Part shown: one piece after another, positions 757 through 36,992 of the stretch | How the letters are laid out: every line of letters begins with the position of its first letter | Position numbering within the stretch: position 1 is the stretch's first letter | UHGV virus genome: UHGV-0136957 | Length of the DNA stretch: 36,992 bases | Source of the DNA: a virus | Strand: one strand, 5' to 3' | Notes under the pieces: generated by a model | What the model saw: the letters and a program-made list of their open reading frames with translations, nothing else | The model's database searches: none | What the model was told of the DNA's origin: nothing | Made by a program: the position numbers and the translations under genes

Positions 757-785
757 CATCATAAAAGGGGCGCAAAGCCCCTATT
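757..785 (-). terminator. Intrinsic terminator ending the late operon (stem aggggc/gcccct, loop, then a U-tract)
   Basis: Minus-sense aggggctttgcgcccct followed by tttatgatgg; begins 4 nt after the fibre stop. Confidence 0.55.
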
Positions 786-1769
786 TTACTCTATTTTTTT
801 AAAGTAGATTTTAATGTAAGCCTTTGTATCTGCTTGAAAATCAAAGGGTGTAATCGTGTAAGTGTTATTTTTTAGAGTTTCGTTTGTGCTAAAAGCCATT
901 GTAAATTCCCAACTTGTAGAGCTTTCGCCCGTTTTTTTCGAGCCTGTGTAGGTTACGCTGGGCTTTTCGGTTGTGGGTAAGGCTAAAAACTGCGTATCCT
1001 CAATAGCTAACATATCAAGCGCGTTTGAGCTTTGGTAAATTTCGCCATTTTCACACTTAATTTCAAACACAAACTTATTTTTTACCCCGTCCGCCACTTG
1101 TATGTCCTCTGTGGGTAGGGACACGCTTAAAGAACCGCTAGCCCCGCTTGGTATTGTAAGCCTTTCTACATATTCAAGGCGTGGCGTGTTTTGAAGTATA
1201 AAATTCCGCACCCATTCAGCATTTACAAGTTCCTTGCCGCTCGCGCTAGGCAAAGGCGTGGGAATAAGCATTGTCCCGCTGTCCGTTTGCAAAATAGGCA
1301 TTTCGTTTAAATCCTTATCCCCTATAAGCACGCTTTGGGCTGTGATTGTCCCACCCAAAATTTCGCCCTTGTTAATCGTGGCGTTTTCAGCGTTTAGGTT
1401 AGTAATGCTTAAATCTGTAATTGTGGCTGTGTTTGCTGTGAGATTTTGGGCGCTTGCGGTTGTAATCTCGGCGGTTGTAATCTCGGCGGTTGTAATAATG
1501 GCGTTTTCGGCTTTAAAAAAAGCTGTATAAAGGTAGGTTTTAAAATCTAAAATTTTTTTTGAAATCATATAAAAAATTTGATTGAAAATTTGCCTTGTGA
1601 TATACAAACCGCCTTCTTTTTTGTCTATGTTATAGCGCGCGCCAAAGCCATCCGCCCAATTCACTTCCCCGTCTGTTTGCGAAGTTAAGTGTAAATTAAA
1701 TTTATCGCCGTTATTTGCAAAGGGTGATGAAAAAAGTTCATCAGGGGCTTGCGGTTCTTGTATAGCCAT
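786..1769 (-). CDS. Tail fibre protein (second, paralogous fibre) with a 15-bp tandem repeat (AEITT)x3
   Basis: Paralogous N-terminus and shared GKELVNAEWV motif; 15-bp repeat gcggttgtaatctcg at 1456-1500. Confidence 0.55.
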   Translation of the reverse strand: MAIQEPQAPDELFSSPFANNGDKFNLHLTSQTDGEVNWADGFGARYNIDKKEGGLYITRQIFNQIFYMISKKILDFKTYLYTAFFKAENAIITTAEITTAEITTASAQNLTANTATITDLSITNLNAENATINKGEILGGTITAQSVLIGDKDLNEMPILQTDSGTMLIPTPLPSASGKELVNAEWVRNFILQNTPRLEYVERLTIPSGASGSLSVSLPTEDIQVADGVKNKFVFEIKCENGEIYQSSNALDMLAIEDTQFLALPTTEKPSVTYTGSKKTGESSTSWEFTMAFSTNETLKNNTYTITPFDFQADTKAYIKIYFKKIE

Positions 1770-1823
1770 TTTTAGCTCCTTATTTTTGTAAAATTATAGC
1801 AAATTTTAGCATATTTTTTTGAT

Positions 1824-1865
1824 ATTCAACCACAATCCCCTACGAAAAAATACGCGGGTTGAAGT
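1824..1865. repeat. Inverted repeat L of the tail-fibre invertible segment (42 bp, with a 20-bp perfect core attcaaccacaatcccctac)
   Basis: Its reverse complement occurs at 2527-2568, with 2 mismatches outside the core. Confidence 0.85.
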
Positions 1866-2164
1866 GGATAAAGTTTAAAACATCCTATGATTTTTTTTGC
1901 GAAGACTTTTATTTGGGATGTGAGTGCAGCACTTTTGCTGATTTTGATTTAAATTTTAAAGAAATAGAATTGTCCGCAGGTGGTTCGTGGTTGTATAAAA
2001 ATAGTGGATATTTGGGGAATATGAGTGGCGAATGTTATGATGTGAGTGGTTTGTGTAAATGCTATGTGTCCTATAATTTTATTTTACAATATGATAAACA
2101 AAGCGAAAAATTGACAAGCAATATCAGTTCTACACAAACTTTAATTTTTTCAAATAAAAACTAA
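1866..2164 (+). CDS. Silent alternative tail-fibre C-terminal cassette (Cys-rich, about 100 aa), currently in inverted orientation
   Basis: Read on the plus strand in frame through IR-L it gives STTIPYEKIRGLKW-IKFKTSYDFFCEDFYLGCECSTF..., which matches the constant/variable junction of the expressed fibre. Track ORF 1859..2164 with a TTG pseudo-start. Stops abut at 2164/2165. Confidence 0.6.
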
Positions 2165-3193
2165 CTATTTATTAAAAAATACAACCGTAGGATTTACAAC
2201 ACACATTCCTACTGTATCACACTCACCAGAACAAACAGCACCTTCTATCTCAATTTCTAAGTGAATACCTTTTTCAGTTCTTTCGCTCATTATTAAATAT
2301 TTGCCAAAGAAGCAACCCCAGCAATCGCTACTCATAGAAACGCAATCCACCCTTATTGTTTCACCAGCTTTAAATTCTAAATTTGATCTATTATAATGTG
2401 TAGCCACAGGCAAAAAATCAACGGAACCATATGCTTGATAGCAACTAGATATACCCGCTAATTCGAATAGCCCTGTTTGACAGCTAGGCGAACCAGTATG
2501 AACACAATAGCTCTCAATAGCTAAATACTTCAACCCGCGTATTTTATTGTAGGGGATTGTGGTTGAATTTCCATTAAATGTATGAATATAAGGGCTAGGG
2601 GCTATCCCGTAATTAGCAATCACCCACTCCGCATTTACAAGCTCTTTGCCTGCCGCATCATTCGGGGGCGTATTGTTAAGCACGCTTTGGCTTGTTGTAG
2701 GGCTTAAAATGATATTAACGCTTTTGGCTTTGTCCGCTATGGTTAAAGTATCAATCCCGCTTATAACGCCCGCATTTTGCGTTAAATCCGTGATAATTGT
2801 TTTTTCACTCGGTTTTATAAGCTCTTTTGTAAAATCCACGATTTTAGCTTTTTTTGCGTTTAAATTTTGCATTGTAAGTTGTGGCGTTTCTAAAAAAGAA
2901 ATATCGTTATTTTTGATTTTAGCCTTATCAGCTTTCAAAAAACGAACTCTTAAATCTTTTTCAACTTGCAAAATTTTACCGCTCAAAGGCTGGACTATGC
3001 CCGCGAATGTCTGTCGTATCATATTTAAGCCGTTTTCTTTGACGGGTATGCGTGAAAATCGTTTTGTAAAGCCCCCAAGCCACGAAAGGCTTTCGTCTGA
3101 TTGCAAATCATTAGGCACTTTTTTAACTTCGCCACTTTTGGCAAATTCATCAGTAAAGATTTTTTCAGGCGGTGTTGGCTCTTTTAAAGGCAT
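2165..3193 (-). CDS. Tail fibre protein: a constant N-terminal ~214 aa plus an invertible-cassette-encoded, Cys-rich C-terminal ~128 aa
   Basis: N-terminus is a paralogue of ORF 786..1769 and shares the GKELVNAEWV motif with it. IR-R (2527-2568) lies inside the coding sequence. Confidence 0.6.
   Translation of the reverse strand: MPLKEPTPPEKIFTDEFAKSGEVKKVPNDLQSDESLSWLGGFTKRFSRIPVKENGLNMIRQTFAGIVQPLSGKILQVEKDLRVRFLKADKAKIKNNDISFLETPQLTMQNLNAKKAKIVDFTKELIKPSEKTIITDLTQNAGVISGIDTLTIADKAKSVNIILSPTTSQSVLNNTPPNDAAGKELVNAEWVIANYGIAPSPYIHTFNGNSTTIPYNKIRGLKYLAIESYCVHTGSPSCQTGLFELAGISSCYQAYGSVDFLPVATHYNRSNLEFKAGETIRVDCVSMSSDCWGCFFGKYLIMSERTEKGIHLEIEIEGAVCSGECDTVGMCVVNPTVVFFNK
2527..2568. repeat. Inverted repeat R of the tail-fibre invertible segment
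   Basis: Reverse complement of 1824-1865; it encodes NSTTIPYNKIRGLKY within fibre gene 2165..3193. Confidence 0.85.
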
Positions 3194-3658
3194 TTAAACT
3201 CCCATTTCTTTTTTAACGCGTTGAATTTCTGCATTCATCGCCTCGTTATACTTTGTAACGATTGAATTTAAGGCGTTTTGCCATTCGCTATTTTCGGCTT
3301 GTAAATTTTGCTCTTTCATAACTTTTTCGCGTTGTTTTTCAAAATAAGCCACACATTCGCTTTGATAGGCTTTTAAATTGAAGTTCTCATCTATACCATA
3401 GCCCAAAGCCTCAATTTTGTTTTTAGCGTCATAAACGGCGTTTATAAAGCACTGAAAGCCATTGATTAAAAGCTCCATTTTTTCGGCATCGACTTGGTCG
3501 GTGCTTAACCCTGCTTCTTGCGCCTTTTTTTTGCAGGGTTTGCAGGTTTGCATAATTTGCATAGCGTTTTGGGTATTTTTGTTAAATTCGTAAAAAATGT
3601 TGTAGAGCTCTCTGCGTTGGTATTCATCTTTTTTTGCTTTTTGAATTGAAAAAGACAT
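3194..3658 (-). CDS. Hypothetical protein upstream of the tail fibres
   Basis: Track ORF with a strong RBS. Confidence 0.45.
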   Translation of the reverse strand: MSFSIQKAKKDEYQRRELYNIFYEFNKNTQNAMQIMQTCKPCKKKAQEAGLSTDQVDAEKMELLINGFQCFINAVYDAKNKIEALGYGIDENFNLKAYQSECVAYFEKQREKVMKEQNLQAENSEWQNALNSIVTKYNEAMNAEIQRVKKEMGV

Positions 3659-3684: not shown

Positions 3685-3695
3685 ATTATAACATA
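3685..3695 (-). promoter_or_regulatory. Late promoter, extended -10 (TGtTATAAT) plus an AGGAGG RBS for the fibre operon
   Basis: Minus-sense ttatgTTATAATttttcaaaatttttaaAGGAGGctttATG. Confidence 0.5.
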
Positions 3696-4183
3696 AAAAT
3701 TTTATAAATGAGAGTAAAAAAAAATATCATTTAAAATAAGAGCAAAACACTTTTATTTTAAATAAGATAAGTTTTATCATATTTTAAACGGACATTTTTT
3801 ATCTTGTTTAAAATAATACTAAATCAGTCCTTTTCAAATAATACTAAAATACTCTTAATTTAATTAAGACTAAATTTATCTTTTTAAAAATACTAATTTT
3901 GTATCATTAAGGTTCGTTTAAGTAAAATAAGAAAATGTTTGTTTTTGCAAATCTTTTAAGAGTATTATTCTAATTTTTAAAAAGTTGAAAAATCACACCT
4001 TGCAAATGCCTATATATCAAGGGGTTTTTCAAATTTAAATTATCCCTAGTGTCTTAATATATTTGTATATAAAAACTTTTTTTTAGATTTAAGGCGTGTT
4101 TCTGCGCTTTTATGAGTTTTTATCAAAAAGTAGTGAATTTTGATAAAAAGGGCTTGTAATTGATAACCCTTTATCAAAAATCC

Positions 4184-4897
4184 TTACTCGCCTTGCTGTT
4201 CGTCTGTGGCAAAAATCGCATTTGTGAAGTTTGTGCGGTTCTCCTCAAAGAATTTTACGCGCTCATTATAAGCGTTCTCATCCGTTGTTTTATCGCTCTC
4301 ATCTGGCGCAAAGCCGATTTTCTTTGCGGTTGTGTCGATTTCCTCTAACTTAACCCCCACGCCTGCGGGTCGGGGTAAAATATCCGTTTGAGCCAAAGTC
4401 CATTTAAGCCAAGTTGGTAATATACCCTGAAACTGATAAATTATATATTCCATATTTTGATTATCTAACACTTTAAGTTCTGCATACTCGCCCAAAATAT
4501 CATAAACAAATTTATTTACTTTTCGCAAACTGCCATTTTGAAACTGCTTTTGCTGAATAATCATTAGCATTTGCCTAAACTGCTTATCCGTAAGAGTATA
4601 ATAAAAAGGTTCATCATCCAACAATTCAATAAAAACATAGCGCGAAAAACCTAAAATCAGCCCCCATAAATCCAAACCCGTTCCGTTTGCCGTGCTGAGA
4701 TTGCAGTTATCTTTTAAGAGGCTTTCAAGCGGTTTTATAGTGTATTTGTATTTGATTTTAGCACACTCTAAAAACAACTTTTGTATATTCGTCCCCTTAT
4801 ATTGTGCCAAAAATCCGCGCTCAAATTCATCCATAGTTTTGGCATAAATGGCGTTCATTTGTTGTATTAAGAGCTCATTTAATTTATTTTCGTCCAT
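4184..4897 (-). CDS. Baseplate/tail protein gpI-like (Mu gp48-like)
   Basis: 237 aa; follows the baseplate J gene. Confidence 0.45.
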   Translation of the reverse strand: MDENKLNELLIQQMNAIYAKTMDEFERGFLAQYKGTNIQKLFLECAKIKYKYTIKPLESLLKDNCNLSTANGTGLDLWGLILGFSRYVFIELLDDEPFYYTLTDKQFRQMLMIIQQKQFQNGSLRKVNKFVYDILGEYAELKVLDNQNMEYIIYQFQGILPTWLKWTLAQTDILPRPAGVGVKLEEIDTTAKKIGFAPDESDKTTDENAYNERVKFFEENRTNFTNAIFATDEQQGE

Positions 4898-18119: not shown

Positions 18120-18154
18120 AGCGTAACGCCTTTCGATTTGTAATTTCAAATCAT

Positions 18155-18165
18155 ATTATAACATA
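18155..18165 (-). promoter_or_regulatory. Late promoter, extended -10 (TGtTATAAT) upstream of the protease/scaffold gene
   Basis: Minus-sense tatgTTATAATatgatttgaaattacaaatcgAAAGGcgttacgctATG. Confidence 0.5.
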
Positions 18166-18216
18166 TAAAATCATTTTTTGATACTCTTTAAAAAACAAAG
18201 AAATTTTTAAGTTTTT

Positions 18217-18227
18217 TATGTTATAAT
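18217..18227 (+). promoter_or_regulatory. Plus-strand extended -10 promoter motif (tatgTTATAAT); a second one (tgaTATAAT) lies at 18385-18393
   Basis: Same motif as the minus-strand late promoters, but on the opposite strand and inside an intergenic region. Confidence 0.4.
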
Positions 18228-18426
18228 TACCTTGTTTTTACCTTCTATAATCTCTTTTTTAGCCCCCGCTCGGGGGCGACTTTTAAGAAGTTTTATAAAG
18301 GGGCGTTAAAACTTTTTTTTAGAAAAAGGTAAAGGATGGTTCAAAAAACGCCCCTTTATAAGATTTTACAAATTTACAAATTTATGATATAATTGCTTGT
18401 TTTCATTATATTTCCTTTTTATGTTT

Positions 18427-18459
18427 CCCCTTGCGCTTTGCGTAAGGGGTTTATTTTTT
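18427..18459 (+). terminator. Plus-strand intrinsic terminator (10-bp stem ccccttgcgc/gcgtaagggg, loop ttt, then tttatttttt)
   Basis: Read directly. On the minus strand the hairpin is followed by A-rich sequence, so it works only in the plus (antisense) direction. Confidence 0.6.
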
Positions 18460-19344
18460 CTCAACTAATACGAAATAATCACCCGCGAGCGCGTCCTTTA
18501 CCTTTTTAAGCTCTTGGGTAGGTAAAACAAAAAGGGCTTTTTGTGAACATCTACAATTCACGCGGTCGCCACAATGTCCCCTATTTCCGTAGCTGTCAAT
18601 AATTGCGGTCGGTTCGCTATATTTATAAATTCGCCCGTCAAGGTGTATGTGTCCGCCCGCGCCCGTTGAAACTCGCTCGTCCTTACTTGTAAGCCACACA
18701 TAATACTCAAAACCCAACTGCTCGGCTCTCGCTTGCTGATAGTCGTTTGCAGCCTTTGCGGTTTGGTCTCTTGCGATTAAACGCGCTCTTTTTTCACTTA
18801 TGCCCTGATATTGTCTAGTTAGTTTAAAAATCGCCTCTTCGTCAAAATTTAAAATGCCGTTTAAAAACCCCTGTCGGTATCGCTCCATAATATCGCTAGG
18901 GATTGATTGTATAAGGGCTAAATTTCGTTCGTAAATCGCTGACATACTCTTTTTAACGCTCATTGTTTTAATTGCAAGAGCTGAAACACTCGCGTCTTTT
19001 AAAGGCGTGTTTTTTAGCTGATTTGCTAAATTTATATCAATATACCCAGCGGTTTGATTAACGAGCTTTCTACTCAAAACTTTTGCACGCTCGTTGATTT
19101 TCTTTTGCCAATCTCTTAAAAGGGCGTTTAGCTCAAAAGCAAGCTGTTTGGGCGTGTTTTTATCCAAATTTTGCTTAATTTTCGCAAGTCCCCAAAAAGT
19201 AACGCTCTTATTTATAGCTTTTGAAATTTCACCCAACTGCTTTTTAAGGCTGTTTTCAATAGCTTTGCTTGCCAAAATGGCTTTAAGCGTTATCGGTTTG
19301 GCTTGTGATTTGCGTTTGCTCGTTTTCTTGTCCGTTTTTGCCAT
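18451..19344 (-). CDS. Mu F-like head morphogenesis protein
   Basis: Size 297 aa; follows the portal, overlapping it by 62 nt; C-terminal Cys/His cluster HCGDRVNCRC. Confidence 0.5.
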   Translation of the reverse strand: MAKTDKKTSKRKSQAKPITLKAILASKAIENSLKKQLGEISKAINKSVTFWGLAKIKQNLDKNTPKQLAFELNALLRDWQKKINERAKVLSRKLVNQTAGYIDINLANQLKNTPLKDASVSALAIKTMSVKKSMSAIYERNLALIQSIPSDIMERYRQGFLNGILNFDEEAIFKLTRQYQGISEKRARLIARDQTAKAANDYQQARAEQLGFEYYVWLTSKDERVSTGAGGHIHLDGRIYKYSEPTAIIDSYGNRGHCGDRVNCRCSQKALFVLPTQELKKVKDALAGDYFVLVEKK

Positions 19345-22776: not shown

Positions 22777-22920
22777 TTAACCCAATAGCCATTTTTTTAA
22801 GCACATATTAGCCTCTCTCGGCTGTATGCTACAACCTGAAAAACTCAAAACAAAAGCTAAAAGTAAAACAAACAAAACGCCCGTAATAACGCCCGAGAGT
22901 GTAAAAATATAATCATTCAT
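22777..22920 (-). CDS. Small membrane or lipoprotein-like ORF (47 aa), not in the track
   Basis: My translation MNDYIFTLSGVITGVLFVLLLAFVLSFSGCSIQPREANMCLKKWLLG; the start overlaps the upstream stop (TGATG). Confidence 0.3.
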   Translation of the reverse strand: MNDYIFTLSGVITGVLFVLLLAFVLSFSGCSIQPREANMCLKKWLLG

Positions 22921-23255
22921 CAAATAGCCCCGCAAAGCGTTTTAATCAAAGGCAAAATACTTTTAGAATACTCATTTAAGTATTCTAGCTCTCGCTCTTT
23001 ATTTTCTGCTCGCTCGCTTATTTGCTTTTGGCATTCTCTTTGTAAATGGGCGTAAGCTAGGACTTTCTCTTTAAGCGTAAAGTCGTCCTTTAAATCACCC
23101 TTTGCGCTTTTTGTCAATTCTCTTTCAACAAAAACGCAAAACGCACCACGCTGGACGAAGTTTTGAAAATAGCTCACTTTTGAAAGCTCGCTAAATTTGA
23201 CTAACTCGTTTTTGAGTTTGCCTTTTGCGTCCTTATAAATGAAGTGTAGAGGCAT
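22920..23255 (-). CDS. Hypothetical protein
   Basis: Track ORF. Confidence 0.4.
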   Translation of the reverse strand: MPLHFIYKDAKGKLKNELVKFSELSKVSYFQNFVQRGAFCVFVERELTKSAKGDLKDDFTLKEKVLAYAHLQRECQKQISERAENKERELEYLNEYSKSILPLIKTLCGAI

Positions 23256-26228: not shown

Positions 26229-27620
26229 TTATCTTTTTTTTGTGCGCGAATTACCCTTATTCTTTGTTTTATGCCAAATCGGCGTTAAACCGCTAAATTC
26301 AGCAAAACCATCGCTTTCGCTTATAAAAACATTAAACCCTTGCTCTTTTAGCTTTTTAGCCCACTCTACAAAGGCTTTGTGGTCAAAACCGCTCTTATGA
26401 TAGCCAAAAGCGATATTTTGTTTTTGAGTTCGCAAGTATGGCGGGTCGGCATAAATGATAATTTCGCTTTTATCGCACCCTAGATTTTCGCAAATTTGCG
26501 TAAAATCAAAATCAGCGTAACTCTTGTTTGAAATTTCCAAATTTAAAAAAGCGGGTTGCTGTTCGAGCTGTTGGAGCTGTTCGAGCCGTTGGAGCTGTTC
26601 GAGCCGTTGGAGCTGTTCGAGCCGTTGGAGCTGTTCGAGCTGTTGGGTTTGCGAAAATGCTCTTAAATTGTTAAAAGCCATTATAGTCTCACCGCCACGC
26701 TTTTGTTTATATTTTTTAGCTGTGGCGACCAAATCAGGGCGTTTAAGGCTTATAATTTTGCATAATTTGCTATTTGAAAACTCTTTTAAAGCCCTTGCGC
26801 TAGTCTCTTGCTTAAATTCATATTTCCAATTTTTCTGCAAGCGAGCTATACACAAGGCTTCAAGTGTTATTACAAAAGAGCTAAAAAACGCTCTGCGCTC
26901 AATCCAAGAGCCAAAGTCCCCAAACATAAAATTAGTTAAAACAAATGCGCTAAATTCTCTTTCTTCGCTGTCTAAATTGTCATAATGCTTTGTAAATTCC
27001 TTATTAAAAATCTCAACACACCATTTTAAACCCTCGCCCCTTTTTTCGAATTCATCTTTTAAAAAAGGGTAAAAAATCATATTATGTCCTGCGTGTTTCC
27101 ATTGCCTAGCCCCAAAGGCGTATGATGCGTTTATGCCTTTCGCCCCAAAGCTATAAATAAAAGATTTTATGATTTCAGCGCCTTTTAAATGTTCTTTATT
27201 TTCATATTTTTCTTTTATGTTAAAAAATTCGTTTTTATCAACCCAAAAATACATTTCTTTATCAAAAATTCCCCATTCATTGCGCGGGTGAGCTATGCAG
27301 TCCTTTATATACTCAAACATTAAGCATAAATCAGTTTTAAGCTCATTGTAATACACTTTTAAGCCACTTGCCAACGCCTGAACGCTCATCGCACCGCCAC
27401 CGCCAAATAAATCAAAAAAATACTTTGCGTTTGGACTATGCTTATGTATCTCTTTTAAGAGTGCACCCGCTATTATTTCTTTGCTACCCGTATAAATCAA
27501 GCAGGTTTTAAGCCGTTTTTCGCACGGCGTCCAGCTTGAAATTTTAGCTTTTTTGCCAGAATCAAACTCACTTTTAAAAATAGGCTCATTTATAAGCATA
27601 TCATCACTAAAAAGGCTCAT
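26229..27620 (-). CDS. DNA adenine methyltransferase, Dam/D12 class (alpha architecture), with an internal LEQLQR hexapeptide repeat array
   Basis: FDLFGGGGAMS (motif I) is N-terminal and YADPPYL (motif IV) is C-terminal. WAGGK-like YTGSKEIIAG. Confidence 0.85.
   Translation of the reverse strand: MSLFSDDMLINEPIFKSEFDSGKKAKISSWTPCEKRLKTCLIYTGSKEIIAGALLKEIHKHSPNAKYFFDLFGGGGAMSVQALASGLKVYYNELKTDLCLMFEYIKDCIAHPRNEWGIFDKEMYFWVDKNEFFNIKEKYENKEHLKGAEIIKSFIYSFGAKGINASYAFGARQWKHAGHNMIFYPFLKDEFEKRGEGLKWCVEIFNKEFTKHYDNLDSEEREFSAFVLTNFMFGDFGSWIERRAFFSSFVITLEALCIARLQKNWKYEFKQETSARALKEFSNSKLCKIISLKRPDLVATAKKYKQKRGGETIMAFNNLRAFSQTQQLEQLQRLEQLQRLEQLQRLEQLQQLEQQPAFLNLEISNKSYADFDFTQICENLGCDKSEIIIYADPPYLRTQKQNIAFGYHKSGFDHKAFVEWAKKLKEQGFNVFISESDGFAEFSGLTPIWHKTKNKGNSRTKKR
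26558..26647. repeat. 18-bp in-frame tandem repeat x5 (gctgttcgagc[c/t]gttgga) inside the Dam-like methylase gene
   Basis: Read directly; encodes (LEQLQR)n on the minus strand. Confidence 0.9.
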
Positions 27621-28015
27621 AGTTTAAAATCCTTTGCGTTTTCATTAAAAGGCTCATAAATTTTAAGCTCGCGTTTAAATGAAACCTTGAAAATAAAGCC
27701 CTTGTAAGTATCCAAAAGCCACTTTAATTTTAGCTTAAATTCGGGCGTTTCGAAGCCCTTTGTATCGTGTATCACCCACACGCCTTTTTCATTATCAAAA
27801 TAGACAAAATCAGCAATATAATGCACTTTACATTTTTCGCTTTGCCCCAACTTTATGCGGACTTGCCTTTGCAAATTTGAAATTTTACCCACTTTTTCAA
27901 GCAAATTTAAATCTAAAAATTGCTGATATTCCAAACGGCTATCAAAAACACCGCTCGGCGTGTTAAGTTTAACATTTCCAAACTTGCTATAAGCCCTATT
28001 TCGCCACATTTTCAA
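27617..28015 (-). CDS. DUF1064-like PD-(D/E)XK nuclease (putative Holliday-junction resolvase)
   Basis: YIADFVYFD...VIHDTKG motif arrangement; ATGA overlap with the methylase gene. Confidence 0.45.
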   Translation of the reverse strand: MKMWRNRAYSKFGNVKLNTPSGVFDSRLEYQQFLDLNLLEKVGKISNLQRQVRIKLGQSEKCKVHYIADFVYFDNEKGVWVIHDTKGFETPEFKLKLKWLLDTYKGFIFKVSFKRELKIYEPFNENAKDFKL

Positions 28016-28029
28016 GCCTTTTTGTTTTT

Positions 28030-28710
28030 TTAAAAAACTTTTTTTCTCAAAACTGCCTTTTGCTCGGCATCAAATAAGGCTTTAATAGCCCTTAAAAATT
28101 CTTGTATTTCAAAATAACTATCAAAAATTAAAGGCAGTTTTCTAATCTCATACGCCGAACTCATACAAGCAAAATGAAAGGTGTTATCAATGTCGGTGTT
28201 ATCGTCCCATTTCACTAGTTTATCAAAATCACCCGCCATAAACCCATGCTTTAAATGAAAAAATGCGTTTTTAAATACGCCGTTTTTGCTGAACTCTTTT
28301 TGCCAAAAAACATCTGCTAGCGCGATCATGATATTGTCTCTCATAATATCTAAAAGCAAACTCGTGGCTTTTTGAAAGTCTCTCTCGCTTGAATGCACGA
28401 TTAGCGTTACTTCCAAGTCAAAGTTTAGACCGTATTCATCATTTTTGAAGCTATAAAAGCGTTTTTCTTTTGGGCTGTCGGTTGTTGAGCGCAAATTGAA
28501 AATAATGTCATCATTATCTAGCTTTAAAATCGAAAGGGCGCAGTTTTTAATTGCGCCGTCTTTGCGTCTAAATTTTGTAGTGCAAAGCTCGCAAAGTCTC
28601 TCTGCAAGGCATTTATTCCAACTAACAATTTTCACTTTCAGCCTCTCTTTTAAGCATTTCAACCTCACGGCGTATTTCGGCGTGATAATCTTTCTCATCT
28701 TGCCAATCAT
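28030..28710 (-). CDS. Hypothetical Cys-rich protein
   Basis: Track ORF. Confidence 0.4.
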   Translation of the reverse strand: MIGKMRKIITPKYAVRLKCLKERLKVKIVSWNKCLAERLCELCTTKFRRKDGAIKNCALSILKLDNDDIIFNLRSTTDSPKEKRFYSFKNDEYGLNFDLEVTLIVHSSERDFQKATSLLLDIMRDNIMIALADVFWQKEFSKNGVFKNAFFHLKHGFMAGDFDKLVKWDDNTDIDNTFHFACMSSAYEIRKLPLIFDSYFEIQEFLRAIKALFDAEQKAVLRKKVF

Positions 28711-28915: not shown

Positions 28916-29392
28916 TTAAAACGGCGCTTCTTCGTTTTCTGTGTCATAGTTATTCAAATTATAATCCCCTTTTTGAGAATTTTTGTCACAACCATACGGA
29001 TTTCCGCTTTGCTTTGAATTTTGCACCGCTTGCGCCTTTGGCTTTTGATAAGTATTCGTAGGCTCTCCGTCCTTTTTGGGCGTTAAAATCAAAAGTTTTT
29101 CGACCGAAATTTGAGTGAAATTAACCCAAGTTCCGTCCTGTTTTTGATAGCTATCCACGCCTAACTGCCCGCGAATACTCACCATAACGCCTTTTTCTAG
29201 CCTTTCTAACGCCCTTTCGGCTGTTTTGCCAAAGCAGATGCAATTAACAAAACAACTTTTATAAGTTCCATCGTTTTGCTTTTGCGTGCTTTGATAAGCC
29301 ACACTAAACCCAACCGCAAGGCAACTTTTAATTTTTTCGTTTGTCTCGGCGGGTTTTGAGACCCGCCCAAACAAATTCACATCACAAAACAT
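28916..29392 (-). CDS. ssb: Single-stranded DNA-binding protein
   Basis: OB-fold-like N-terminus, a Gln/Asn-rich linker, and an acidic C-terminal tail ...ENEEAPF (compare the canonical DDDIPF tail). Confidence 0.75.
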   Translation of the reverse strand: MFCDVNLFGRVSKPAETNEKIKSCLAVGFSVAYQSTQKQNDGTYKSCFVNCICFGKTAERALERLEKGVMVSIRGQLGVDSYQKQDGTWVNFTQISVEKLLILTPKKDGEPTNTYQKPKAQAVQNSKQSGNPYGCDKNSQKGDYNLNNYDTENEEAPF

Positions 29393-29867: not shown

Positions 29868-30701
29868 TTACTCATAAAACGCGAAACTAGGCAAAGAAAT
29901 CGTTTGAATAGCATTATTTTCAAACTCTTTGTCAAGCCACACATTTTTTTGATATTTTTCTTTGTGAGAAATAATCTCAAAAGCCTCATCGATTTTCTTT
30001 CGCGCAAAGTCCAAAGCTACCATATCCAGCTGATACAATCCAACCATATACGGATATTTTTTTTCAACAGCTACAAAAGTAAAGCTGCGAGCGTTTATCA
30101 AATCAGTGTAAAAGGCGGCTTGAATGTGATACCCAAAATTAGCCACAGCCTTGATAAAATCAGCTTTTTTTGAGCTTTGCACGAATTTTAAATCCACAAT
30201 GTTTAGCTCATCATCTAAAAAATCAAAGCGAGCCTTACAAAAATGGCTATTTTCGCCACTTTGTAAATCGCCGAGCCACACAGCTTCCTTGTAGCCGTTA
30301 TCAAAAAACGCCTTAAAGACATCGCCGTTAATTTCTAAAATCGCTTGCGTTTCAGCCCAAAGTGTGCCATCAATTAGCGTTTTTCCGTCCTTGTCGGCTT
30401 GTTCTTTAAGAGCCTTATGCTCTTTATTTCGCAAGTCGATTTTATCAATATCCTTTAAAATTTGATATTTCTTATCGATTTCATCGGGTGAAAGTATAAA
30501 ATCATGCATTAAAGAGCCAAAGTCCAACGCCTTGCTTTCTGCGCGGGGTTTTTCAACCCCAGCACAATAGAAAAACGGATTTTCTAAAATTTCTTTGATG
30601 GTGCTTTGATTTAAAGCATCGATTTGTCGATATTCATCAAAGCTCATATCAGTTATGATTTGATTTTTGGGGTATTTGTTAAACACTTTCAACCTCCCCA
30701 T
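29868..30701 (-). CDS. YqaJ/lambda-Exo-like PD-(D/E)XK recombination exonuclease
   Basis: Motifs ...DGTLWAE..., D...VDLKFV; position next to the annealase. Confidence 0.55.
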   Translation of the reverse strand: MGRLKVFNKYPKNQIITDMSFDEYRQIDALNQSTIKEILENPFFYCAGVEKPRAESKALDFGSLMHDFILSPDEIDKKYQILKDIDKIDLRNKEHKALKEQADKDGKTLIDGTLWAETQAILEINGDVFKAFFDNGYKEAVWLGDLQSGENSHFCKARFDFLDDELNIVDLKFVQSSKKADFIKAVANFGYHIQAAFYTDLINARSFTFVAVEKKYPYMVGLYQLDMVALDFARKKIDEAFEIISHKEKYQKNVWLDKEFENNAIQTISLPSFAFYE

Positions 30702-31353
30702 TTTGTGATAAAAATTCAGCCAACAAATCCATTAAATCAGCTTTTAAAGCTGTTAAGGCTTCCGCGTTGTCCTTATCAACGCCCGACCACTCAATGAAAA
30801 TCGGTATTTGCTCTTTTTGTAACCCTTTTTTAAGCGCGATTTCCGCTATTTCTTTTTTCAAAGCCACTAATTTAAGCGCATCAGCCGACTTTGCAGAGAC
30901 CACCGACAGCTTATTGTTTGGGTTCGCTGGGGCTTGATAACCTATATCGTCTATATCGCGGTTGTCATCAAGCAAAAACAGCCCACAAAGCGCATTTTTG
31001 CGGGCATAAGAGCTAGTAGAGCCGCTCAATTGCGCCCCCTTAATATAGCCCGTTGTATCCTCCAACGCCAAAGCTGTGGCGGTTTGTGTATTGCCGAATT
31101 CATCAAAAAGCGTGGCTGTGGCTTTAATATAGTTTTTAGAGCCAACTTCCACTACATCATCACTCAACGCAAAGCCCAAACCTTGCTCTTTAAGCAAAGG
31201 TTTAAGTTTTTCTAAAATATCCTCTAACGAGCGATATTTGTAATTTAGCTTTTTATCCTTGCCCCCCTTGTCCTTTGGGACTTTAAGAGCCACCTGCACC
31301 GCTGAAAGTCTGTCAATAAAAGACTTTCGATTTTCAAAATTTAATGTTTCCAT
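30679..31353 (-). CDS. ERF-family single-strand annealing protein
   Basis: N-terminal region LSAVQVALKVPKDKGGKDKKLNYKYRSLEDILEKLKPLLKEQGL matches the ERF pattern; it is paired with an exonuclease and an SSB. Confidence 0.6.
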   Translation of the reverse strand: METLNFENRKSFIDRLSAVQVALKVPKDKGGKDKKLNYKYRSLEDILEKLKPLLKEQGLGFALSDDVVEVGSKNYIKATATLFDEFGNTQTATALALEDTTGYIKGAQLSGSTSSYARKNALCGLFLLDDNRDIDDIGYQAPANPNNKLSVVSAKSADALKLVALKKEIAEIALKKGLQKEQIPIFIEWSGVDKDNAEALTALKADLMDLLAEFLSQNGEVESV

Positions 31354-33055: not shown

Positions 33056-33389
33056 TTAAGCTCCTTTCGATTTCTGCTATCTCTTTGCGTAGCTCCGCAA
33101 GCCTTTGCAACTTAAATTCCTTGTTTTTAAGCTCGCAAATTTCGTTTTCAAGCCTTGTTAATTCAAGCTCAAAGTCATTTTTCAGCTTTGAAATTTCCAA
33201 GTCCGCGCTTTCGCATTGAGAGCGTATTTGTTGCAAGCACTTTAACGCTTGAAAGCTAGCCTCAGTTTCGATTTTTCCAAAGCGCAAAATCAAACCAAGC
33301 TCGCGCCTTATGCACGAAAGCGTGATTTGAATTTCGCTCATACTACTTAAAAATCGCTCTTTCATTTCACACCTTAACAAAAATTTCAT
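33048..33389 (-). CDS. Hypothetical coiled-coil protein
   Basis: Track ORF; heptad-like KLQRLAELRKEIAEIERSL. Confidence 0.4.
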   Translation of the reverse strand: MKFLLRCEMKERFLSSMSEIQITLSCIRRELGLILRFGKIETEASFQALKCLQQIRSQCESADLEISKLKNDFELELTRLENEICELKNKEFKLQRLAELRKEIAEIERSLNV

Positions 33390-33480
33390 TTGTAGAAAAT
33401 GCGAGAATTATCGCGTTTCCCAAGTCTCAACAAAAGTTTCATTTGTAGAAAATGCGCGAATTATCGCGTTTTCCAAGCTA
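33376..33480. repeat. 52-bp tandem duplication (2 copies, about 90% identical) spanning the 3' end of gene 33408..33701 and the start of gene 33048..33389
   Basis: Copy 1 is 33376-33427 and copy 2 is 33429-33480 (aacaaaa[a/g]tttcatttgtagaaaatgcg[a/c]gaattatcgcgttt[c/t]ccaag...). Confidence 0.85.
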
Positions 33481-36386: not shown

Positions 36387-36992
36387 CGAAATCCTCCGTA
36401 TTTGATTTTTGAAAATTCAAGGCTTTTAAATCGTCATCGCTGTAATATCTATCGTTCAAATCGGTTGTAACATACTTTTTAGCAAGGTCGCCCCTTGCCT
36501 TATTGCGCTCGCGGGCGTAGGCAGAGTTTTCAAAGTTAATTTTTCGTGGCTCGAATAAGCCCTGCCATCCGTTTGTAATACTATTTTCTATGCTGTCATA
36601 AGCCCCTATGCCTAGCTTAATGAGCTTATTGATGATTTTAACTGCGCCCGTTTCAGTTATCGGCTTTTTAATCTCATCTCTATGTTTTGCGAATTCCAAA
36701 ACATCAGCCAGCGTGAAATGGTGTATTTTGTCTTTGTGAGCGTTAAAAGCGTTTGTAATGTTTAAAGCACTATTAGCTTTTTTAGCTTTTGGCTTTTTAA
36801 CACTTAAATCGCTTTGTGTTTGTGATGAATTCTCAAAAGCAGAATTTTCACACTCAAAAAAAGTGCTTGCGCTTTGTTCTTTTGGTATTGTTTCTTTTGT
36901 TTTTGTATTCTTTTGATTTTGTAATATAGGTAGTTTAGGGGTATTTTTACCCTTATCGTTCGGGGTATTTTTACCATTATCGTTCGGGGTAT
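36373..36992 (-). CDS. Replication-initiator-like protein, 3' part (C-terminal domain), in frame with the 5' part across the window junction
   Basis: Track ORF 36373..36699 begins at an internal TTG. The same frame stays open upstream through 36992 (...KGKNTPKLPILQNQKNTKTKETIPKEQSASTFFECENS...HHFTLADVLEFAKHRDEIKK...). It joins the frame of the ORF at 1..469 exactly. Confidence 0.55.
   Translation of the reverse strand, partial: TPNDNGKNTPNDKGKNTPKLPILQNQKNTKTKETIPKEQSASTFFECENSAFENSSQTQSDLSVKKPKAKKANSALNITNAFNAHKDKIHHFTLADVLEFAKHRDEIKKPITETGAVKIINKLIKLGIGAYDSIENSITNGWQGLFEPRKINFENSAYARERNKARGDLAKKYVTTDLNDRYYSDDDLKALNFQKSNTEDFDGNN
36928..36992. repeat. Same 24-bp tandem array (about 2.5 units) as at positions 1-116; the sequence is seamless if the ends are joined
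   Basis: Read directly: ...ggggtatttttacccttatcgttcggggtatttttaccattatcgttcggggtat, continuing into ttttaccattatcg... at position 1. Confidence 0.9.

Follow-up and report, generated by a model that had tools for sequence, protein, structure and literature searches.

The window, by which we mean the whole stretch of 36,992 nucleotides analyzed here (virus genome UHGV-0136957), is a complete circular genome: a rep ORF continues in frame across its ends, and both ends lie within one 24-nt repeat array. Its fiber genes would form a late operon in the order promoter, 154-aa ORF, fiber gene 1, silent cassette, fiber gene 2 and terminator (Table 1). Against an expectation of 1.5, we counted 12 copies of the putative promoter motif in the window, chiefly within intergenic gaps and on the minus strand. 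No Pfam or PHROG match was obtained for the 154-aa ORF. Fiber gene 2 is related to fiber gene 1 over residues 1 to 191 only (35% identity). A DUF2612 gene is also present in the window (4184-4897).

Table 1. Features of the fiber locus and of the putative recombination module
Feature	Position	Strand	Remarks
Intrinsic-terminator-like hairpin closing the fiber operon	766..782	-	
Tail-fiber gene 2, constant paralogue outside the invertible segment	786..1769	-	Weak PHROG tail-fiber matches
IR-L, left arm	1813..1865 (42-nt core 1824-1865)	.	
Cassette B, silent alternative C terminus (...TLIFSNKN*)	1866..2164	+	Homologues fused to the fiber N terminus in P0005-P0009, L001
Cassette A, expressed Cys-rich C terminus (...VVFFNK)	2165..2526	-	Stop at 2165-2167
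IR-R, right arm	2527..2579 (42-nt core 2527-2568)	.	Encodes NSTTIPYNKIRGLK at the constant/variable junction
Constant N-terminal part of tail-fiber gene 1, residues 1 to ~205	2580..3193	-	Highly conserved in 20 homologues
Conserved 154-aa ORF, first gene of the fiber operon	3194..3658	-	Same position and length in every relative
Promoter-like extended -10 motif TATGTTATAAT	3685..3695	-	27 nt upstream of the 154-aa ORF; putative function
DUF1064/Holliday-junction-resolvase-like protein	27617..28015	-	Pfam PF06356; PHROG 190 'Holliday junction resolvase', E = 1.3e-15
Single-strand DNA-binding protein (SSB)	28916..29392	-	Pfam PF00436, E = 1.4e-11
PDDEXK-type exonuclease (DUF3799), ERF partner	29868..30701	-	Pfam PF12684, E = 5.4e-19
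ERF-family single-strand annealing protein	30679..31353	-	Pfam PF04404, E = 3.7e-25; candidate inversion catalyst, putative role

The product of fiber gene 1 (2165..3193, minus strand) reads ...NSTTIPYNKIRGLKY at residues 209 to 223. On the plus strand, the frame of cassette B is open from 1823, reads YSTTIPYEKIRGLKW...FSNKN* and ends at 2164. The two alternative C termini converge, as an earlier, sequence-only reading of this DNA had described, with stop codons that abut at 2164/2165, and the 661 nt between the repeat arms consist of the two cassettes only. That reading had also singled out 1859..2164 as the sole sizeable plus-strand ORF. Other plus-strand ORFs of at least 90 aa exist, but they all overlap minus-strand genes, and 1859..2164 is the only one located in a gap. 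An independent gene at this position, such as one for a chaperone, was rejected, because the silent frame lacks an ATG and is preceded by neither a Shine-Dalgarno sequence nor a promoter-like site, and because its homologues are the C termini of fibers in relatives.

The limits of the constant region had to be revised. It had been taken to comprise 214 aa, with the right arm exactly at the end of the N terminus shared by the paralogues. The orthologues set the constant/variable boundary at residue ~222, whereas the similarity to the paralogue stops at residue ~191. An AlphaFold2 model of the full fiber, built from a 20-sequence alignment, had a mean pLDDT of 41, and only residues ~190 to 225, around the junction, were predicted confidently.

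The two cassettes are bracketed by a pair of inverted repeats, found where they had been reported. The 42-nt core of IR-L on the plus strand matches that of IR-R on the minus strand with 2 mismatches; it is made up of 20 perfect bp, the 2 mismatches within 3 nt, which distinguish an AAT from a GAA codon, and 19 further perfect bp. The likeness extends to 53 nt at 89% identity. This is the top-scoring inverted repeat of the entire window, and no match of its grade was obtained in 100 dinucleotide-preserving shuffles, so that none is expected by chance.

Comparison with related genomes revealed both orientations. In L001, identity to the window is 98.6% in the upstream flank and 95.6% in the downstream flank, the constant part 2580..3193 itself being 98.6% identical, whereas positions 1821-2571 of the window align at 92% on the opposite strand. 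The L001 fiber (P0005, 321 aa) is composed of the constant N terminus and cassette B, and cassette A is silent. Thus, the cassettes are reversed between near-identical flanks, as expected of an invertible segment that swaps the fiber C terminus, and the fusion of the constant N terminus to the other C terminus that the earlier reading had predicted from inversion exists in nature. The homologue of cassette A is likewise the silent, inverted cassette in L004 and in L019, where cassette B is expressed. A second pair of cassettes also occurs both ways round, as B/C' in L006 and L017 and as C'/B in L015. Apart from the 0.7-kb segment, no stretch of the window is inverted with respect to any of the related genomes. 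The locus combines the generic features of gene-altering programmed inversions, namely, a full gene next to a start-less inverted partial paralogue, coding inverted repeats, and both orientations among genomes. As judged from these alignments, the comparison shows that the segment is a real, minimal invertible cassette that has been flipped repeatedly in nature.

One IMG/VR contig, from the L001 strain, stops 5 nt past the silent-side arm, and those nucleotides (CTGTA) are those of the strain's own N-terminal flank, i.e., the junction of the opposite orientation. This tail suggests that both orientations were present in one sample, on the within-sample basis of these 5 nt only. The L007 and L017 contigs, which also end near the cassette, yielded no alternative junction, as both terminate inside the silent cassette. 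Five predicted flipped fiber proteins (both crossover variants for the window and L001, one for L006) had no exact match in a collection of 15 billion proteins, an absence that is uninformative because assemblies give the majority orientation. A homology search with the silent cassette alone returned only the ORF of the window itself, the word index being limiting.

The state of the silent cassettes bears on whether switching is still under way. A full-length open silent cassette is kept in 5 of the 8 two-cassette lineages (6 of 9 genomes), despite 13 to 26% DNA divergence between lineages. In the three others it is damaged: the L019 copy is interrupted by an in-frame stop codon, the L014 copy has a stop codon that comes too early, and L012 retains no more than 37 codons. 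Two lineages (P0016 and P0014) have no silent cassette. Switching is thus too infrequent to hold every silent copy under selection. The orientation differences might then be fossils of rare illegitimate or homologous events, combined with the exchange of fiber modules between co-infecting phages, in a system that is decaying and no longer switches at the population level. Such a history would also fit the cassette pairings, which have been reshuffled between lineages (A+B, B+C', B+E, D+C'), the cassette dN/dS ratios at or above 1 (2.8 and 1.6, from small counts), which show no purifying selection on the silent copy, and the missing flipped proteins. We nevertheless consider it improbable. At least one flip separates genomes whose flanks differ by ~1.4% only, the majority of two-cassette lineages retain an intact silent copy, the contig tail suggests coexistence of the two orientations, and the likeness of the two arms within each genome (p = 0.003; see below) requires ongoing arm-to-arm exchange.

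We searched for an enzyme that could catalyze the inversion. The absence of a serine or tyrosine recombinase from the genome, asserted by the sequence-only reading, was borne out on the complete circle. Pfam searches of all minus-strand ORFs of at least 90 aa detected neither type (no PF00239-type and no Phage_integrase match), PHROG searches of the ORFans identified no recombinase, and tblastn searches of the window with Hin, Gin and XerD gave nothing below E = 5. There was no recombinase in the 21-kb neighborhoods of two relatives either. The distantly related DA10-like Campylobacter phages also lack an integrase (PMC7291426). A diversity-generating retroelement was rejected, since no ORF contains a reverse-transcriptase domain and the repeats are inverted junction copies rather than template and variable repeats, and a transposase was rejected because the ORFs contain no such domain.

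About a dozen ORFs of the early region have no family assignment, and one of them could in principle be an unrecognized phage recombinase. The 226-aa product of 28030..28710 was considered because its ORF lies between the SSB and DUF1064 resolvase-like genes, downstream of the ERF and exonuclease genes. However, 1.8 billion representative proteins contained only 2 relatives of this product and the PDB none, which gives no support to a cryptic recombinase, and a recombinase motif was found in no ORFan. Furthermore, comparison over 21 kb of L006, which has a cassette, with L008, which has none, revealed no recombinase-like gene difference. A phage recombinase hidden among the ORFans is thus very improbable.

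A recombinase might also be supplied in trans by the host. Relatives of the fiber and terminase were not found in 185,579 reference genomes, and no close phage or plasmid record was found. The only named relatives are the DA10-like phages of Campylobacter jejuni, with a terminase ~50% identical, and a Helicobacter prophage (41%), from which the host is probably Campylobacter-like. The main rival to the explanation we prefer is that a serine invertase or tyrosine recombinase encoded by this host acts on a ~34-nt site within the repeat. A stretch of this length, CCACAATCCCCTAYAAYAAAATACGYGGGTTRAA, is indeed common to all arms compared among genomes and has the size of classical inversion sites. 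The single mappable crossover (window versus L001, plus the L004 contig tail) is confined to one sub-region, the outer 20 to 23 nt of the arm, which is also compatible with a fixed crossover site. The phage genome itself has no recombinase, and bacterial invertible regions with distant recombinases are known (PMC9881135).

The evolution of the arms argues against such a site. If the ~34-nt stretch were maintained for binding of a protein, it should be conserved between genomes beyond what the encoded junction peptide imposes. We found no such over-conservation: nucleotide diversity of the core was 0.15 compared with ~0.09 for the rest of the gene, synonymous changes were seen in 3 of the 6 codon columns of the core and in 67 of the 147 others, and codon choice in the core was not unusual for the genome. 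The core thus shows no sign of a conserved protein-binding site, and the conserved peptide accounts for the common stretch. Gix/hix-type crossover sites are 26-bp dyads with the core AAACC-NN-GGTTT. Allowing at most one mismatch to this core, we found 2 matches in the window, a count no higher than chance, and none in the arms. The shufflon sfx site (7-bp core GTGCCAA plus right arm TCCGGTACGTGG; PMC4176322) was matched by the arms at 9 of 19 positions only.

In contrast, the two arms co-vary within genomes, synonymous sites included, with a mean of 2.0 mismatches within versus 4.4 between genomes over a 39-nt core (permutation p = 0.003). The length of arm identity varies from 36 to ~55 nt depending on the genome and tracks how far the two cassettes resemble each other. 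This concerted evolution spans the whole 40 to 55 nt, which would not be expected of serine or tyrosine enzymes, as they exchange strands within 2 to 8 bp. In addition, the phage has no lysogeny module, and its brief stay in the cell would make reliance on a host enzyme fragile; the lack of any relative among the reference genomes also counts against this explanation. Altogether, we regard a host recombinase as a serious but rather unlikely alternative.

Concerted arm-to-arm evolution, an arm extent that varies and the lack of a specific site conserved between genomes are the properties expected of inversion driven by homology. The sequence-only reading had offered a host recombinase or a recent relic as the sole options; this third one is rather favored by the data. 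The phage encodes a full general-recombination set, composed of ERF, PDDEXK exonuclease, SSB and Holliday-junction resolvase. We give about an even chance to the view that inversion is homology driven, by way of this module and/or host recombination. The ~222-aa constant N terminus ends in a conserved junction peptide, STTIPYxKIRGLK(W/Y), encoded by the right arm, and the second C-terminal cassette, directly downstream, inverted, start-less and promoter-less, opens with the same peptide, for which the left arm codes. In the mechanism we propose, the 40- to 55-nt arms would undergo homology-dependent recombination or gene conversion during replication. This would flip the ~0.7-kb segment and place the alternative Cys-rich tip in frame behind the N terminus (a 342-aa versus a 321-aa fiber), leaving the flanks and fiber 2 unaffected. 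The agents would be the annealing protein, exonuclease, SSB and resolvase of the phage and/or the general recombination of the host. More tentatively, and with somewhat less than even probability, we propose that the phage's own module both flips the coding repeats and keeps them alike during replication, and that this host-range switch without a dedicated recombinase represents a distinct minimal class of programmed inversion.

Several considerations temper the homology-driven explanation. The arms are short: the 20 and 19 perfect bp of the window lie close to, or under, the minimum that RecA- or Red-type recombination usually needs to be efficient, so that flips driven by homology would be rare. 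Annealing proteins favor deletions between direct repeats, whereas inversion requires strand invasion or template switching, and every classical fiber switch relies on a site-specific enzyme whose sites have about the size of the arms. Flipping is probably an infrequent event and not a fast enzymatic switch.

Known systems resemble the locus in part. As in the Mu G/Gin, P1 C/Cin, e14 P/Pin and p15B Min systems, inverted repeats are located at the constant/variable junction of a fiber, and inversion joins one constant N terminus to alternative C termini, with presumed receptor or host-range switching. The match to the Mu, P1 and e14 switches drawn by the sequence-only reading thus holds at the level of function only. 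In contrast to these systems, the complete phage genome has no invertase gene and its arms no gix/hix-type site; the segment is only ~0.7 kb, with two abutting C-terminal cassettes and no co-inverted fiber-assembly (U/U') or chaperone genes, and a second, constant fiber gene lies downstream. In R64-type shufflons, the C termini of an adhesin-like protein, PilV, are similarly swapped by inversion at short coding repeats with no need for an enhancer. Those are driven by the tyrosine recombinase Rci at 31-bp sfx sites, whereas the phage has no rci and a single segment with two arms instead of clustered multiple inversions.

The flip of the fiber tip may also be compared with the sap inversion of Campylobacter fetus, which is RecA dependent and involves repeats of about 600 nt of conserved 5' sequence. 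Precedents for inversion without a dedicated recombinase include the genome isomers of Anabaena cyanophages, in which orientation is scattered among close relatives, as here, and inversion has been ascribed to general recombination (bioRxiv 10.64898/2026.02.14.705889). However, the repeats of these cyanophages and of sap measure 400 to 700 nt and their segments 6 to 30 kb, compared with 40 to 55 nt and 0.7 kb in the phage, whose scale is much closer to that of site-specific systems. A second precedent is pneumococcal spnIII: SpnIII/ivr hsdS inversions persist without CreX/PsrA or other known recombinases (PMC6620402). The two loci share a full gene facing start-less partial copies, short coding inverted repeats and the absence of every known site-specific recombinase, but SpnIII/ivr is a bacterial restriction-specificity gene that normally has a dedicated recombinase in its locus. 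Finally, a survey of gene-altering programmed inversions across bacteria found tail-fiber and DUF2612 baseplate genes to be enriched around such loci (Milman et al. 2023, PMC9881135). The general architecture and the presence of DUF2612 are shared with the window; however, the survey dealt with bacterial genomes and prophages, where a recombinase was usually close by, and its authors named viruses as a future target.

To our knowledge, inversion of phage fiber tips, a textbook means of host alternation, has invariably been linked to a Gin-type invertase whose gene lies beside the segment. Here, a complete 37-kb genome combines the architecture of the switch and natural flips, yet no recognizable invertase. 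If inversion is homology driven, short coding repeats together with the annealing-protein system of a phage would suffice for bet-hedging on receptors, searches anchored on recombinases would miss such switches in viromes, and the 0.75-kb element would provide a compact test bed for recombinase-independent inversion. Should the phage module drive the flip, it would offer a natural model for unexplained recombinase-independent inversions in bacteria, such as that of pneumococcal spnIII. If a host enzyme is responsible instead, the locus would point to an invertase, as yet undescribed, of the host, which is probably Campylobacter-like. Under either mechanism, the cassette repertoire, with no fewer than 7 types of tip on a single conserved shaft, can help to predict and engineer the host range of this group of phages.

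The 42-nt inverted repeat that the sequence-only reading had placed at the tail-fibre locus was recovered with its 2 mismatches, 1824-1865 on the plus strand pairing with 2527-2568 on the minus strand, and a comparable 42-mer inverted match occurred in none of 100 dinucleotide-preserving shuffles. With more divergence allowed, the repeat extends to 53 nt at 89% identity (1813-1865 / 2527-2579), with a spacing of 661 nt between the two arms, and this pair ranks first among the inverted repeats of the entire window. The arms comprise 20 perfect bp, 2 mismatches in one codon (AAT vs GAA) and a further 19 bp without mismatch. The first tail-fibre gene (fibre 1) is the 342-aa ORF 2165..3193, whose residues 209-222 (NSTTIPYNKIRGLK) are encoded by the right arm, read on the minus strand. 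On the plus strand of the left arm, a frame open from 1823 reads YSTTIPYEKIRGLKW...TLIFSNKN* up to its stop at 2164, and the stop codons of the two convergent frames adjoin at 2164/2165. The plus-strand frame is preceded by neither an ATG nor a Shine-Dalgarno sequence, and by no site resembling a promoter.

Homologues of the fibre in public metagenomes formed 20 clusters, in all of which the N-terminus is highly conserved up to IPYxKIRGLK(W/Y); beyond this motif there are at least seven unrelated-looking C-terminal types, mostly Cys-rich. In the homologue P0005 (321 aa), an N-terminus with 95% identity to that of the window is joined to a homologue of the cassette that is silent in the window. 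The contig carrying P0005, L001, shares 98.6% identity with the window on the upstream side and 95.6% on the downstream side, but matches window 1821-2571 at 92% on the opposite strand, and the silent cassette of L001 is a homologue of the tip expressed in the window. Thus, the window and L001 carry the same pair of cassettes in opposite orientations, with the same flanks on either side. In all loci compared, no stretch other than the cassette segment was inverted with respect to the window.

Naming the expressed tip type before the silent one, the window is A/B and L001 is B/A, as is L019, with a single in-frame stop in its A-type silent cassette (~3960-4400). L006 and L017 are B/C', L015 is C'/B, and L013 is B/E. 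L014 and L007 are both D/C'; the silent cassette of L014 (~3952-4240) has a premature stop, TGG-to-TGA, 15 codons before the C' end, a codon intact in L007, whose contig stops within the cassette. L012 expresses A and has a silent remnant of 37 codons only. The P0014 and P0016 lineages are without a silent cassette; the latter comprises at least 10 contigs, and P0016 has an arm relic of 27 nt at 81%. At least two independent inversions are required to produce these states, and the cassettes have been reassorted between lineages as well. The locus is almost certainly a genuine invertible fibre-tip cassette that has flipped in nature.

The L001 strain is also represented by an IMG/VR contig, which starts where L001 does and differs from it at 9 positions in 5,378 nt. 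It extends 5 nt beyond the silent-side arm, reading CTGTA where L001 has AAAAA. In this strain the reverse complement of the N-terminal flank reads CTGTA, whereas CATTA would be expected from a window-type strain; the tail therefore corresponds to the opposite-orientation junction expected for the same strain. The probability of a chance match is about 1 in 1,000, thin but specific; this 5-nt contig tail, on which within-population switching rests, hints that both orientations coexist in one sample.

The genome is circular and the window covers it completely, cut within a 24-nt repeat array, as shown by the repeats at both ends of the window; a lambda-O-like replication ORF runs in frame from 470 across the joined ends (1/36992) to 36373. 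The same phage measures 37,023-37,026 nt in other assemblies. The 24-nt repeats encode (K/N)GKNTPND repeats and probably serve as iterons of an origin that, as in lambda, lies within the initiator gene. Genes lie on the minus strand throughout. The structural module belongs to the E217/Pam3 myovirus type. Products of the early region are a DnaC-like loader, Bro/ANT proteins, two methyltransferases and, for recombination, an ERF annealing protein, a PDDEXK exonuclease (DUF3799), an SSB and a DUF1064 Holliday-junction resolvase. The fibre region appears to form an operon of its own. The motif TATGTTATAAT, of the extended -10 type, occurs 12 times in the window vs 1.5 expected, mostly in intergenic positions upstream of gene blocks (minus-strand sites include 702, 3685, 7300, 10749, 18155, 25234 and 29422), and these sites probably represent the phage's promoter set. 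Two such promoter-like regions form a 44-nt inverted repeat (685-728 / 18201-18244). The intergenic gap 18150-18460 holds two plus-strand units, which may encode small RNAs of about 50-70 nt and have no Rfam match. In the cassette-less P0014 lineage, fibre 2 (L020, 4025-5233) has 402 aa, begins 10 nt downstream of fibre 1 and carries a 75-aa proline-/lysine-rich C-terminal extension that is not in the window's 327-aa fibre 2.

Features of the fibre operon and other elements of the window
Feature	Position	Strand	Remarks
Promoter-like TATGTTATAAT	3685-3695	minus	first element of the fibre operon
Conserved 154-aa ORF		minus	between promoter-like motif and fibre 1
Fibre 1	2165..3193	minus	after the 154-aa ORF; followed by the silent cassette
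Cassette A	2165..2526	minus	expressed tip
Cassette B	1866..2164	plus	silent tip
Fibre 2	786..1769	minus	35% identity to fibre 1, first ~190 residues only
15-nt tandem repeat	1456-1496		in fibre 2; encodes AEITT 2.7 times
Terminator	782-766	minus	end of the fibre operon
~7 tandem 24-nt repeats	1-110 and 36938-36992		TTTTACC(A/C)TTATCGTTCGGGGTAT; within the lambda-O-like replication gene
Promoter-like TATGTTATAAT of first plus-strand unit	18217-18227	plus	followed by hairpin GCCCCCGCTCGGGGGC and T-run
TATGATATAAT of second plus-strand unit	18383-18393	plus	followed by hairpin CCCCTTGCGCTTTGCGTAAGGGG and TTTATTTTTT
Unlisted basic frame, ~85-90 aa	22464-22733	minus	in a 624-nt gap between holin-like gene and ORF 22920..23255; probably a small gene overlooked through the 90-aa cut-off
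18-nt tandem repeat, 4.9 copies	26558-26646		in D12-class adenine methyltransferase gene; encodes (LEQLQR)n, which may be a length-variable linker
53-nt tandem duplication	33376-33477		1.9 copies, 93% matches; where two small early ORFs meet

The genome had been said to lack a serine or tyrosine recombinase, and our searches bear this out. Pfam gave no resolvase or integrase domain in any minus-strand ORF of at least 90 aa, the wrap-around ORF or the plus-strand cassette, PHROGs revealed no recombinase among the ORFans, and tblastn of Hin, Gin and XerD against six frames of the circularised genome returned nothing below E = 5. Except for the cassette, each plus-strand open frame overlaps minus-strand genes, and these frames look like antisense noise. 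The 21-kb neighbourhoods of one cassette-bearing and one cassette-less relative contained no recombinase either. A collection of 1.8 billion representative proteins contained 2 relatives of the sole ORFan above 200 aa, 28030..28710, and the PDB contained none. The nearest cultured relatives, DA10-like Campylobacter phages with ~50% terminase identity, are reported to be without any integrase (PMC7291426). That a cryptic recombinase of the phage performs the inversion is highly improbable.

Concerted evolution links the two arms. Substitutions particular to one genome, in many cases synonymous, occur in both of its arms (for example CGT + AAA in L006, TTA in L013, AAT in L014 and CCA in L015). 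Mean mismatches in a 39-nt core were 2.0 within a genome vs 4.4 against the opposite arm of another genome (permutation p = 0.003, n = 6 genomes). The repeat itself is under no special conservation between genomes: nucleotide diversity was 0.15 in its core vs about 0.09 over the N-terminus, and synonymous variation affected 3/6 invariant-residue codons inside the core vs 67/147 outside, statistics that, like the dN/dS values below, come from few sites in 6-10 genomes. The length of arm identity ranges from 36 to about 55 nt, tracking the resemblance of the two resident cassettes.

Concerted arms that are not conserved between genomes are the pattern predicted by homology-dependent exchange, and not that predicted by a fixed recognition site of a host invertase. 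We give homology-driven inversion about an even chance. Exchange with heteroduplex repair between the arms would make their match to each other count, rather than a match to a consensus, and the phage supplies a full general-recombination set. Campylobacterota are not known to have MutHLS mismatch repair, and its absence should ease the use of short, imperfect homologies. However, the stretches of homology are very short, with 20 + 19 perfect bp in the window, and inversion of DNA is not an obvious activity of annealing proteins. In addition, only one event can be mapped (from the window vs L001, and from the L004 tail), with the exchange in the outer 20-23 nt, GA(A/T)ATTCAACCACAATCCCCTAC, because the AAT/GAA mismatch goes along with the cassette. 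Such a crossover would be compatible with a fixed site too. A site-specific enzyme of the host is the main rival as the agent of inversion, but a less likely one, given that the arms are homogenised over 40-55 nt and the core is not conserved between genomes. Strand exchange by serine and tyrosine recombinases falls within 2-8 bp, so these enzymes would not homogenise such lengths. A gix/hix-type core was absent from the arms.

The proposed likeness to the Mu G, P1 C and e14 P switches holds for host-range switch function but not for the invertase gene, the gix-type site and the co-inverted assembly genes, which define that family and are all missing here. A shufflon was rejected, the sfx match in the arms being unconvincing (9/19 positions) and XerD giving no match by tblastn, as was a DGR. 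The searchable literature yielded no account of this group of phages, nor of a fibre switch that lacks an invertase. The cassette belongs to the generic gene-altering programmed inversions (PMC9881135). Among the closest cases are pneumococcal spnIII, in which inversions persist without a known recombinase (PMC6620402), and the genome isomers attributed to general recombination in Anabaena cyanophages (bioRxiv 2026.02.14.705889), whose repeats are, however, longer than those of the window by an order of magnitude.

Between the window and L001, non-synonymous to synonymous differences were 21 : 2 in cassette A (dN/dS 2.8), 30.5 : 4.5 in cassette B (1.6) and 5.5 : 2.5 in the constant N-terminal part (0.6). 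The counts are small, and neither cassette ratio exceeds 1 significantly. Diversifying or relaxed evolution of the receptor-binding tips would fit these figures, which are no proof of selection on the silent copy. The silent cassette is full-length and open in 5/8 two-cassette lineages (6/9 genomes), even though the DNA of the lineages differs by 13-26% from one to another, and it is unlikely that the locus is a fossil in which switching has ended. The nonsense mutations, truncation and loss in other lineages show that the system is dispensable and that switching is probably slow.
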